Positions 5,481 through 13,290 of a DNA stretch of 64,000 nt are shown piece by piece. This stretch comes from Eledone cirrhosa (Eukaryota), in assembly GCA_964016885.1 (NCBI GenBank), contig OZ024744.1, positions 46,934,001 to 46,998,000 on the forward strand, given 5' to 3'. The stretch's first letter is position 1, and each line of letters begins with the position of its first letter. A program made the translations under genes and the position numbers. The notes beneath the pieces are model-generated. The model searched no databases and was not told the origin of the DNA. It saw nothing but the letters and a program-made list of their open reading frames with translations.

Positions 5481-6640
5481 GAAGTAATTCCATCGGAAAA
5501 GTCCAGGAAAAAAGAGTGCTCTATGTAAGCAACAGAGCTTAATTATTATTATTATGTAATAAACAACATAAGGCAATTATTCCATTTACCAGTGGTTTCT
5601 TAAAAGCAAAAGGTTTTGCTTTCAATCCTCAGAATGAAAAATCCTGGTTTGTTTATTGAATATGGATTCTAAAAACAAAAATGCAATCTATATGAAAGTG
5701 AGGCTGGAAAAGGGAGAAGGAAAGGAAAAATAAAATAAAATAAAACTACACATGCAAACACACACAAAAAAACACAAAAGCATACTTACACACACACACA
5801 TATATACACATATAATTTGCACGCATACACATATACACATACACACATATATAATATATATATATATATATATATATATATACATACATATATATACATA
5901 TGTATATATATATACATATATATATAAAGAGCGTACACCTACACACACATACACATATATACACACATATACACATACATATATTCATACATACACACAC
6001 ACACACACACACACACACATATACACACACACACACACATACACACACACTTATATATACACATGTACATATCCATACATATATACATATATATATATAT
6101 ATATATATATATATATATATATATATATATATATATATCCATACATATATACATATATATATATACATATATATACATACATACATATACACACATATAC
6201 ACATATACATACACACACACATATATATACACACACATATACATACATTCACACAAACATACAACGTACATACATACACATACATGAATGCACTCCACTA
6301 CATATTAACACACGCAAATAAATATAAGAAAAAATTAATATAAATAATATTAACAAATATTTGACAGCGATACATGCCCCAGCTAACAGGACAGACACGC
6401 GTGGTAAGTAATACACACATAAGCATATATACATACGTTCGAAATAGTAAACACATACACACACTCTCACACATAAATATACATATACAAATACATAAAC
6501 ACGTACATACACATACATACGCAAACACGTACACGTATACAATATAAACACACACATATGTATATGTAATTATATACACACACACACACATATACATATA
6601 TATATATATATATATATATATATATATACATACAAAAATA
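5481..6640 (-). mobile_element. Inverted pseudo-LTR copy of the PLE at 6641-13261
   Basis: Reverse complement of ~7146-8886 without the nested 7174-7724 insert. Includes the HHR at 5581-5638. Confidence 0.9.
5581..5638 (-). ncRNA. Type I hammerhead ribozyme (inverted copy of 8729-8786)
   Basis: Exact reverse complement of 8729-8786. Confidence 0.85.
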
Positions 6641-6645
6641 TTTTT

Positions 6646-6703
6646 TTCATTCTGTAGATTGAAGGAAACTTTTTTTGCTTTTAAGAAACCTCTGGTGAAT
6701 GGA
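6646..6703 (+). other. Degenerate hammerhead paralog at the pLTR start (second copy 11624-11681)
   Basis: ttcatt-CTGTAGA-ttgaagg...cttttaa-GAAA-CC tct GG-TG-aatgga. Core A>T and cleavage triplet GUG differ from 8729-8786. Confidence 0.75.
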
Positions 6704-7307
6704 TTAATTGCCTTGTATGGCTTTATTACTTTACTACTATATATACGTTTATGTAAGGTTCATTTGTCTTATCTAATACTGAGCTTTACACATACACACA
6801 TGTATATGTGTGTGTGTATGTGTATGCATGTGTGTATGTGTACGTGTATGTGTGTATATATATATATATATATTTATATATATGTATGTGTATATATATA
6901 TATATGTATGTGTATAAATGTATATGTGTATATGTATGTGTATGTATGTATATGTTGCGTGTGTTTTTATTTATTTTTATGCATGTGTGGGTTTGTGTGT
7001 GGGTGTGTGTGTATATATGTGTGTGTGTTTGTATTTGGTTGTGCGTTCTTTTGATATATACGTATTTGCATGTGTATAATTGTTTAGCTATGTATGTATA
7101 TGTGTGTTTACGTATTTATATGTGTGTGTGCGTTTATATTTTTATATTTTTGTATGTATATATATATATATATGTAGATAAATCTACCAAGAGTTTACGG
7201 TAGTGTCCAATCCGTATGAAGAACTCAATGTATTCCGGATATCATGGAAAGAAGAGATGTAATGAAAAATCACTTTCGGTGAAAGATAAACGGTATACAG
7301 AGTCAAG

Positions 7308-11139: not shown

Positions 11140-13168
11140 ACTCCTTCTCTGCTCTTTACTTTTGCTACGGCTTTTATTTTGCTGCTTCTACCTTCTGTAC
11201 TCTTGTATTTAAAAAAAAATTTTCTCCCTTACCTCCCCTTATATTTTTACCTCCTCTTAGCCCCCCCCACCCCATATATTCTTTTTGTTTTGCCCTTCAC
11301 ATACCTATGTGTATGTGTATGTATTTTTGTGTGTATATATGTATATGTGTACGTATATGTTTGTGAATGTATATATATGTGTATGTATGTATGTATATGT
11401 ATGTGTGTGTATATATGTGTATGTATATGTGTCTGTATATATATATATATATATATATATATATATATATATATATATATATATATGTATATATATATAT
11501 ATATATATATATATATATATATATATATATATATGTGTGTGTGTGTGCGTGTCTGTATGTGTGTATATATTTGTATATTTGTGTGTGTATATGTATGTAT
11601 ATGTGGATAAACCAGGGCTTTTTTTCATTCTGTAGATTGAAGGAAACTTTTTTTGCTTTTAAGAAACCTCTGGTGAATGGATTAATTGCCTTGTATGGCT
11701 TTATTACTTTACTACTATATATACGTTTATGTAAGGTTCATTTGTCTTATCTAATACTGAGCTTTACACATACACACATGTATATGTGTGTGTGTATGTG
11801 TATGCATGTGTGTATGTGTACGTGTATGTGTGTATATATATATATATATATATATATATGTATGTGTATATATATATATATATGTATGTGTATAAATGTA
11901 TATGTGTATATGTATGTGTATGTATGTATATGTTGCGTGTGTTTTTATTTATTTTTATGCATGTGTGGGTTTGTGTGTGGGTGTGTGTGTGTGTATATAT
12001 GTGTGTGTGTTTGTATTTGGTTGTGCGTTCTTTTGATATATACGTATTTGCATGTGTATAATTGTTTAGCTATGTATGTATATGTGTGTTTACGTATTTA
12101 TATGTGTGTGTGCGTTTATATTTTTATATTTTTGTATGTATATATATATATATATATATATATGTATATGTGTGTGTGTGTGTATATAATTACATATACA
12201 TATGTGTGTGTTTATATTGTATACGTGTACGTGTTTGCGTATGTATGTGTATGTACGTGTTTATGTATTTGTATATGTATATTTATGTGTGAGAGTGTGT
12301 GTATGTGTTTACTATTTCGAACGTATGTATATATGCTTATGTGTGTATTACTTACCACGCGTGTCTGTCCTGTTAGCTGGGGCATGTATCGCTGTCAAAT
12401 ATTTGTTAATATTATTTATATATTTTTTCTTATATTTATTTGCGTGTGTTAATATGTAGTGGAGTGCATTCATGTATGTGTATGTATGTACGTTGTATGT
12501 TTGTGTGAATGTATGTATATGTGTGTGTATATATATGTGTGTGTGTATGTGTAGGCTTGTACACACACATGTGTGTGTGTGTGTATGTATATGTGTATAT
12601 GTGTGTATATGTATGTATGTATATATATGTATATATATATATGTATATATGTATGGATATATATATATATATATATATATGTATATATGTATGGATATGT
12701 ACATGTGTATATATATGTGTGTGTGTATGTGTGTGTGTGTGTGTATATGTGTGTATGTGTGTGTGTGTGTATATGTGTGTGTGTGTGTGTGTGTGTGTGT
12801 GTGTATGTATGAATATATGTATGTGTATATGTGTGTATATATTTGTATGTGTGTGTAGGTGTACGCTCTTTATATATATATGTATATATATATACATATG
12901 TATATATATGTATGTATATATATATATATATATATATATATATATATATATATATTATATATGTGTATCTGTATATGTGTATGCGTGCAAATTATATGTG
13001 TATATATGTGTGTGTGTGTAAGTATGCTTTTGTGTTTTTTTGTGTGTGTTTGCATGTGTAGTTTTATTTTATTTTATTTTTCCTTTCCTTCTCCCTTTTC
13101 CAGCCTCACTTTCATATAGATTGCATTTTTGTTTTTAGAATCCATATTCAATAAACAAACCAGGATTT

Positions 13169-13226
13169 TTCATTCTGAGGATTGAAAGCAAAACCTTTTG
13201 CTTTTAAGAAACCACTGGTAAATGGA
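13169..13226 (+). ncRNA. Type I hammerhead ribozyme at the end of the 3' pLTR
   Basis: Identical to 8729-8786 (offset 4440). Confidence 0.88.
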
Positions 13227-13290
13227 ATAATTGCCTTATGTTGTTTATTACATAATAATAATATATATATATATATATATATATATATAT

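Follow-up and report, generated by a model that had tools for sequence, protein, structure and literature searches.

Insertions of a Penelope-like element (PLE) in the genome of Eledone cirrhosa end at two fixed sites, E1 and E2, each lying a few nucleotides (nt) 5′ of its own hairpin, and nearly all resolved inverted insertions carry E1 at one end and E2 at the other. The twin hairpins are apparently an undescribed RNA module, common to the Hydra clade of PLEs, that predicts both insertion ends. The element was analysed in a 64,000-nt stretch of DNA (the window: assembly GCA_964016885.1, contig OZ024744.1, positions 46,934,001–46,998,000 of the forward strand; coordinates below are relative to it), and the 3.0 Gb genome was searched for further copies. 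An earlier reading of the window (the original prediction) had described an apparently intact, young PLE with hammerhead ribozymes (HHRs) in its pseudo-long terminal repeats (pLTRs). The following features define the module, where RT denotes reverse transcriptase:

8728–8787, forward strand: HHR1, minimal type I, palindromic stem III (ACCACUGGU); predicted cut after 8780
8821–8827, forward strand: E1, first fixed end site and putative RT start, 41–47 nt past the cut
8829–8851, forward strand: hairpin 1, GCUC-U…A-UA-GAGCAC
8886–8893, forward strand: E2, second fixed end site and putative RT start; end of the tail
8896–8972, forward strand: hairpin 2, GCUC-C…G-UU-GAGCAC, with a long loop

Insertion ends and their pairing

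Positions were numbered from the predicted cut, u1 being 8781. Genome-wide counts of exact patterns gave 2,394 HHR ends, 382 E1 junctions, 66 E2 junctions (in one spelling) and 41 read-throughs. Ends were mapped in the window and in 140 fetched regions, namely 20 selected by their open reading frame (ORF), the first 40 of the 66 E2 matches, 60 of the first 65 listed E1 matches (the other five were covered by other fetched loci) and 20 of the 41 read-through matches. Outer ends fell at u41–47 (E1) or u107–113 (E2), all downstream of the cut. No copy ended at the cut followed by TATA, as against 2,394 exact copies reading through it.

After removal of one duplicate, the 99 end-selected loci comprised 63 with E1 and E2, two with E2 at both ends, one with E1 at both ends, four unresolved and 29 without an inverted arm; E1 was paired with E2 in 63 of the 66 resolved inverted insertions. 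The locus with two E1 ends (L111) has arms of discordant haplotypes. The same pairing was found in four of five pairs in family B and five of six in family D, two sister families in this genome. The arms of inverted pairs have 353 minor alleles in common. Focal arms were 300 nt or shorter in 56 of 99 cases, and in 41 short pairs the inner ends lay mostly 17–122 nt upstream of the cut; in 25 of these pairs the two agreed to within 5 nt, compared with a mean of 6.1 and a maximum of 17 over 20,000 permutations. The E1 arm is longer than the E2 arm in the window copy (6.1 kb versus 1.16 kb) and at the L056-type, L110, L137 and L138 loci.

At L110, L097, L042 and L149 the E2 arm consists of the tail only or of part of it. 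Short repeated or templated fragments were seen at the inner junctions of L069, L071, L111 and L134; such fragments resemble those of polymerase theta end joining or of RT template jumps.

Twin hairpins

The hairpin motif consists of GCUC, a variable stem, a 2-nt bulge and GAGCAC (GCUC-Y…R-UH-GAGCAC), and recurs twice after the HHR cut. It was first seen on scanning 78 metagenomic loci for HHRs. Motifs were counted in 53 of these loci (those with a match near residue 1), 39 of which had at least 150 nt upstream; of the 39, 30 had two GAGCRC motifs no more than 260 nt from the ORF start, seven had one and two had none. Upstream of ORFs the motif occurred 67 times in 9,312 nt, compared with 14 times in 81,900 nt of ORF and four times on the minus strand. 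Covariation was seen only in the register with the 2-nt bulge (87 of 91 paired; shuffled mean 68.6, 0 of 2,000 shuffles). Thirty hairpins picked by hand from the list contained 41 double-sided changes, a number reached in none of 500 shuffles, and slid controls scored much lower; the four lower stem pairs carry no covariation because they are invariant in those hairpins. For the lower stems of the window hairpins, the predicted pairing probability is 0.94–0.99 for seven of eight pairs.

E1 lies 2–8 nt 5′ of hairpin 1 (8829) and E2 3–9 nt 5′ of hairpin 2 (8896). In 23 distinct modules the cut and hairpin 1 are separated by 33–57 nt, and the two hairpins by 55–83 nt. The 3′ copies end 0–6 nt 5′ of a hairpin in eight of ten same-contig metagenomic cases and at all ten family B ends. 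The rule that ends precede hairpins also holds in family D, at 42% identity in the RT, where hairpin 1 contains a compensatory A-U base pair. Published consensus untranslated regions (UTRs) of Hydra-1_Ajap, Hydra-2_Ajap and Hydra-2_Amil hold the motif, and that of Hydra-1_Crog a variant (PMC8557442). In the literature searchable without subscription we found no description of the twin hairpins, of the one-of-each pairing count or of the TG signature described below, and a term search of the main text of PMC8557442 returned no mention of twin hairpins or end pairing.

Priming and the template RNA

Since each hairpin has a site of its own and an insertion typically uses both, the simplest picture is of two protomers on one RNA. 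The hairpins, each with its end site on the 5′ side, probably bind two RT-endonuclease molecules, which would prime both target strands from a single RNA. An anole PLE with two internal RT starts, extension of both strands and a predicted dimer provides a precedent (PMC11167929). In the proposed pathway the two protomers would cut the (TA)n target on both strands, and each site of the same RNA would give rise to one cDNA. Both antisense cDNAs would stop early in most events and be joined head to head by microhomology or a template switch, and the product would be an inverted insertion that carries the tail at one of its ends. To copy the ORF, a cDNA would have to pass from the 5′ region of the RNA to its 3′ region. 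The window copy may be one such event, with a 1.16-kb E2 arm and an E1 arm of 1.37 units, later struck by a second Hydra family.

The 5′ UTR, past the HHR cut, is the sole place where the full two-hairpin module occurs, and integrated 3′ ends lack either hairpin 2 (at E2) or both hairpins (at E1). Arms with a complete ORF ended at E1 (18) or E2 (16), a split that may shift by one since L151 and L167 were scored at an HHR2 look-alike. Hairpin 2 lay downstream in only one of 35 such arms, and that copy is broken; a further ten start-codon matches had no downstream HHR in the fetched DNA. If the hairpins act beside their own sites, RT would begin within the 5′ module and would have to enter the ORF at its 3′ end. 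As integrated 3′ ends lack the full module, copying of the ORF would need a circle or a strand transfer.

The likeliest route, which we put somewhat short of an even chance, is rolling copying of a 4,440-nt circle made by HHR cleavage and ligation; its chief competitor, which we rate less likely, is strand transfer on a linear RNA that stays uncut. Tandem units have 137 minor alleles in common and differ at 17 lineage sites in 19,165, and such homogenised units fit both routes alike. A family D locus with three intact ORFs in tandem, differing by 0–1 nt per 1,500, favours rolling-circle copying, later unequal recombination being possible. Homogenised tandems, the restriction of the module to the 5′ UTR and the three-ORF tandem give indirect backing to a circle. 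Circular and linear templates may coexist. The fuller reading, in which a bipartite RT promoter recruits an RT-endonuclease dimer with one protomer per strand, the ribozyme circularises the unit and (TG)n is realigned at E2 as by telomerase, is tentative and in our view less likely than not. If it is true, the job of the ribozyme would be to place the ORF upstream of the priming sites.

Other templates were weighed against the circle primed at two hairpins. The original prediction took the linear 4,440-nt HHR product (8781–13220) to be the template, which would be primed at its 3′ end in the manner of a LINE. It has the right unit length, would carry the whole ORF and is bounded by well-formed HHRs. 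However, with every end downstream of the cut, by 41–47 or 107–113 nt, and none among the patterns searched at the cut itself, the linear monomer cannot be the end-primed template, and we regard this scheme as very improbable. Much stronger, though in our view still unlikely, is two-hairpin priming on an uncut, terminally redundant linear transcript. Here RT would run to an RNA 5′ end 20–120 nt upstream of the HHR, and the strong-stop cDNA would integrate or transfer to the 3′ repeat and continue, leaving the HHR incidental or later-acting. The many short arms, the clustering of inner ends upstream of the cut with agreement within a locus, and the lack of effect of HHR mutants on insertion in vitro (PMC11167929) all speak for it, and it too would homogenise tandem units. 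It leaves unexplained why the HHR1 triplet is kept and why the spacing from cut to hairpin 1 is held within 33–57 nt over 23 modules, and it requires repeated, precise transfers to make the three-ORF tandem.

A distinctly improbable scheme makes the inverted arm by self-priming fold-back, possibly on an antisense template as for rotifer PLEs, E1 and E2 being DNA-level endonuclease cuts at inverted repeats. The near-symmetric inner ends and palindromic junctions seen here speak for fold-back, which was proposed in PMC3846280, and the endonuclease of the D. virilis element does not cleave unless the tail is present (cited in PMC11167929). For an E2 cDNA, however, fold-back needs the E1 arm to lie inside the E2 arm, and is ruled against by the loci with longer E1 arms listed above; fold-back of a short E1 arm cannot make the tail, and the hairpin motif is strand-specific and covaries like RNA. 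Slightly less probable again is a scheme that lacks a monomer stage, in which tandem donors yield long read-through transcripts and looping lets these be primed at the 3′ pLTR. Tandem donors of 1.5–2 units exist, and a multimeric mRNA is the scenario of PMC11167929, but hairpin 2 follows only one of 35 complete ORFs and upstream and downstream units do not diverge by position. Moreover, the hairpin 1 loop has three alleles, each found at both 5′ and 3′ positions, and these match within loci in 23 of 25 cases (shuffled mean 11.7).

Several points weigh against two-hairpin priming of a circle. Both loci with two E2 ends (L068, nested; L058, resolved by L043) break the pairing rule, and L279 and L306/L307 are further possible exceptions. 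Inner ends of long pairs agree within 20 nt in only 3 of 21, one of them microsatellite-limited, and inverted pairs differ at 128 lineage sites, mostly from 11 loci, several being nested or adjacent older copies. Nine of the 39 metagenomic loci lack two exact motifs; the metagenomic set contains near-duplicates, and the shuffles ignore relatedness. Hairpin 2 of family D has a predicted pairing probability of only 0.08. The hairpins could instead have a part in translation, act in a promoter or be recognised as DNA. Inner ends cluster 17–122 nt upstream of the cut, which points to a 5′ end of the RNA at that place, and a linear RNA left uncut would account for this more readily than a circle. 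An apparent excess of 5′ ends at −2 to +3 of the cut (first 100 entries), considered as proof of cleaved templates, was rejected because microhomology with both (TA)n and the E2 sequence confounds it. Finally, in the in vitro work on the anole PLE the start site did not differ from one strand to the other, and HHR cleavage was dispensable (PMC11167929).

TG inserts at E2 junctions

At 50 of 74 unselected E2 junctions, primer-side inserts of TG type, 1–7 units long, lie between (TA)n and the element; 18 junctions had none and six had other sequences. The mirror form was seen twice, and never among the E1 junctions listed. The commonest insert, (TG)3, was found 15 times but is rare in flanking tracts (13, compared with 958 single TG and 81 TGTATG), which argues for addition by RT over target selection. 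We therefore favour TG units added by RT and realigned on UAUACA before hairpin 2. The signature is nearly absent in family B, and so is family-specific.

Hammerhead motifs

The HHR1 cores at 8735, 13175 and 5632 (reverse strand) are identical over 60 nt, with stems I, II and III of 7, 11 and 4 bp (A15.1-U16.1 counted) and predicted cuts at GUA after 8780 and 13220. No comparable motif occurred in 200 Markov controls, so that the three identical, well-formed type I motifs of the original prediction, and their place in the repeats, stand at the level of sequence. No Rfam family reached its gathering score in the locus, the HHRs included; matches by E-value were miRNA models driven by microsatellites. 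The hammerhead is not the predicted minimum-energy fold, the monomer having a predicted probability of about 1%, and a double hammerhead through the palindromic stem III is predicted to be favoured (−31.2 kcal/mol versus −23.4 kcal/mol for two monomers). Across copies the HHR1 triplet is GUA in 236, GUG forms occurring at the position of a paralog, HHR2.

HHR2 has an uncleavable GUG triplet and, in the window copy (6643–6723 and 11621–11701), a CUGUAGA core. Across copies its core is intact in 79 of 86 and the triplet is always GUG. A role as helper half of a double hammerhead was considered (heteroduplex −7.0 versus −8.2 kcal/mol) and is not supported, because the core is broken in the young sub-lineage of the window copy (L031, L032, L056 and the window). 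A helix between the tail and the cut site that would oppose the ribozyme (−12.4 kcal/mol in the focal family) was also rejected, being unconserved over 23 modules (p 0.6).

Copy number and age

Age was estimated from 38 distinct ORF-spanning copies taken from the best matches and the read-through loci, a sample biased to young copies. Fifteen of the 38 had neither gap nor stop, and 16 ungapped copies differed by a median of 0.45%. The copy nearest to that in the window differs by 2 nt, and the one identical pair of ORF copies lies within a single locus. The ratio pN/pS was 0.15 for shared variants and 0.51 for singletons. A frameshift common to copies near 10426 falls in a C homopolymer (slippage or sequencing error). 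Together with the 2,394 exact HHR ends, the low divergence bears out the original view of a young family, and by these sequence measures the family was amplified, and so active, in the recent past.

Encoded protein and clade

The uninterrupted 710-aa ORF was confirmed at 9007–11139 on the forward strand. Its structural model has a pLDDT of 89.4, and Foldseek ranks TERT structures first among PDB folds (best match telomerase TERT, 3du5, E 2.2e-8). Pfam gave no RT or GIY-YIG match on the 710-aa protein itself, and Pfam and PDB sequence searches with the element yielded nothing informative. Pfam GIY-YIG matched two of 41 aligned relatives (best E 0.0037) but not the 710-aa protein, a miss that is expected because the Hydra endonuclease (EN) is divergent. 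In the model, the GIY-YIG-like motifs VVYE574 and YVG594 lie in two β strands followed by helices.

RWK37 is present, and the sole GxKF match, at 503, lies outside the N-terminal region (GxKF/Y is not conserved in the Hydra clade either). DKG is replaced by DKT (DKT114), a Hydra-clade trait. The linker carries CSCRKPDEC555 (CxCX5C), followed by CSLC658 (CxxC) and CPH689 (CxH), a pair that in the Hydra clade surrounds conserved E and N residues. There is no Cys between VVYE574 and YVG594, so the CCHH motif of the EN is absent; a loose regular-expression match to it at 658–695 is the CxxC/CxH pair, not the canonical motif. The target is (TA)n, as in the Hydra clade, and unselected partner ends also lie in (TA)n. 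By eye, 24 of the first 44 residues match Hydra-1_Obim. Every Hydra-clade motif of section 11 of PMC8557442 was found. The unit of 4,440 nt exceeds the length given for the clade, generally below 3 kb (about 2.9 kb separate the cut from the end of HHR2), a length that is typical rather than defining (PMC8557442). Relatives numbered 1,902 among 8,000 scored candidates, the best 120 at 42–59% identity.

Naiad/Chlamys (N-terminal EN, CxC domain, DKA, no canonical HHR) was rejected, the EN-like motifs here being C-terminal and DKT and HHRs present, as were Penelope/Poseidon, Neptune and Nematis (DKG, CCHH in the EN). As the original prediction had suggested, judging by its motifs (RWK, DKT, CxCx5C, CxxC, CxH, no CCHH) the element belongs to the Hydra clade of C-terminal EN+ PLEs, a new member of a known clade and ordinary as an element.

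Layout of the window copy and neighbouring repeats

The remaining features of the window copy are:

5481–6641, reverse strand: inverted arm, 5′-truncated at the equivalent of 12126; outer end E2, including the 67-nt tail, joins (TA)n
5515–5538, reverse strand: hairpin 1 copy within the inverted-arm tail
5580–5639, reverse strand: HHR1 copy of the inverted arm, identical to 8728–8787
6641–8780, forward strand: upstream partial unit (pLTR), 5′-truncated at the equivalent of 11619; inversion junction at 6641
6643–6723, forward strand: HHR2 paralog, upstream copy; CUGUAGA core, GUG triplet; predicted non-cleaving
7178–7722, no strand assigned: nested mini inverted insertion of family D (another Hydra family) in a (TA)n tract; arms of 338 and 208 nt, one HHR per arm
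9007–11139, forward strand: 710-aa ORF, RT and putative C-terminal GIY-YIG-type EN; RWK37, DKT114, YRDD346, CxCx5C555, CxxC658, CxH689
11140–13167, forward strand: long 3′ UTR, rich in microsatellites
11621–11701, forward strand: HHR2 paralog, downstream copy; CUGUAGA, GUG
13168–13227, forward strand: HHR1, downstream copy; predicted cut after 13220
13221–13261, forward strand: 3′ terminus at E1, joins (TA)n; lacks both hairpins

The direct repeat (6641–8821 versus 11619–13261) differs by four substitutions and microsatellite indels. The direct arm amounts to 1.37 units, and the outer end of the inverted arm is 67 nt longer than the 3′ end at 13261. Partial-tandem pLTRs, an inverted 5′-truncated copy and a tail at one end are all present. 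The original prediction was right about the unit length of 4,440 nt, about both outer ends lying in (TA)n and about the near-identity of the direct pLTRs, but the direct repeat is larger than a pLTR. It had overlooked the full span of this repeat, the nested insertion, HHR2 and the tail, which only the inverted arm has. Its "intact" element holds for the ORF, the 5′ module and the 3′ repeat, which are undisturbed; the upstream copy is split by the 545-nt family D insertion, so the locus as a whole is not. It had also allowed for repeats created by misassembly. Microsatellites abound in the region, but the same architecture recurs at more than 100 loci with differing flanks, the three copies hold private differences, and contigs from independent short-read runs carry the same kind of ends, at 8815 and 8893. 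An artefact is therefore exceedingly improbable. These contigs (X1–X4) come from four runs, at most two samples and one study, possibly including the source sample, and are uninformative on starts, ends and circles.

Family D (the nested insertion and L319–L321) has an 813-aa ORF, a 6.67-kb unit and, by pattern search, 1,180 exact copies of a 29-mer; stem II of its HHR is about 115 nt, and its mini insertions begin at the 5′ strand of stem I. Family B (L264, L269–L278, L279–L296) is a second young Hydra family, 70% identical in protein, which shares with the window family the HHR, the twin hairpins and the way in which ends are paired. L297 and L298 represent a third Hydra family at a greater distance (42%).

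The (TA)n tracts at the locus are a hotspot of serial insertions. A palindromic insertion of another repeat family (5051–5462; arms of 248 and 181 nt, again a 67-nt difference) shares a (TA)n tract with the left end of the element and has a CUGAUGA motif and no GCUC/GAGCAC hairpin. Two more inverted-end repeats (13292–13790 and 13921–14045) directly adjoin the element on the right. Positions 950–2600 hold the 3′ portion of another PLE, with an apparently CCHH-bearing EN region (by eye) and an HHR-like motif near 2364; another HHR-like motif lies at 959. An HHR-bearing end at 270–470 on the reverse strand (core at 451) matches a repeat of L298. Elsewhere in the window are a 690-aa open frame with tandem C2H2 zinc fingers of 84-bp period (18745–20817, reverse strand), reminiscent of octopod genomes, and a 48-bp satellite of about 665 copies with 93% matches (32147–63999, to the window end). 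At L278, a 312-nt tandem repeat (219–900) has one HHR per unit, as in retrozymes.

Comparison with known systems

The one-end tail, inverted pLTRs, two RT starts and a circle proposal are already in print (among PMC8557442, PMC11167929, PMC4209133, PMC3846280, PMC8969392, PMC13282606 and bioRxiv 10.64898/2026.07.22.740005). How PLEs make the tail and the inverted and tandem repeats, and what the hammerhead does, are described as open (PMC8557442, section 15; PMC11167929). The apparent novelty is the clade-wide RNA element and the pairing rule, not the element itself. The twin hairpins would be a defined, mutable cis-element from which both ends can be predicted, in metagenomic relatives as well as in three families of this genome. 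With them the PLE mechanism becomes directly testable and the role of the ribozyme can be put to experiment as a yes/no question; for such work in vitro, a young family whose ORFs are intact is at hand.

With the published Hydra clade (Craig et al. 2021, PMC8557442; Hydra-1_Obim, Hydra-1_Ajap) the element has in common RWK, DKT, CxCx5C, CxxC, CxH, the lack of CCHH between GIY and YIG, the HHR and (TA)n. Its unit is 4.44 kb, compared with less than 3 kb for published members (PMC8557442), because of a microsatellite-rich extension and a second, uncleavable HHR. In PAc, a Poseidon element of Anolis carolinensis (Frangieh et al. 2024, PMC11167929), two adjacent internal RT starts past the HHR likewise define the tail. 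Both strands are cut and extended in PAc and a dimer is predicted (PMC11167929), as is proposed for the window family. The PAc starts lie 111–118 nt inside the ORF at one AC-rich stem-loop, with no strand difference reported; the sites of the window family are separated by 67 nt within the 5′ UTR, each has its own hairpin, and one is used per end. HHR1 resembles the minimal type I hammerheads of PLEs (Cervera and de la Pena 2014, PMC4209133) in its long stem II, short palindromic stem III and predicted dimer. A circular template was already proposed there to explain tandems (Discussion), and the position of the priming module in the window family would add a structural reason for a circle or strand transfer.

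Two more distant systems invite comparison. In L1 twin priming, two target strands prime on one RNA to give an inversion, the second primer annealing at a random internal site so that the arms abut. The use of two strands and one RNA and the resulting inversion would be alike in the window family, whereas here the sites are fixed and both arms copy the same region. In telomerase, an internal template is positioned by RNA structure. Its RT (TERT, 3du5) has a related fold, but the window element copies kilobases rather than a short template and has its own putative endonuclease. The short (TG)n additions at E2 may reflect primer realignment like that of telomerase. PLE RTs form the sister group of telomerase, so that a structured RNA able to position an internal start would be relevant to how telomerase arose.

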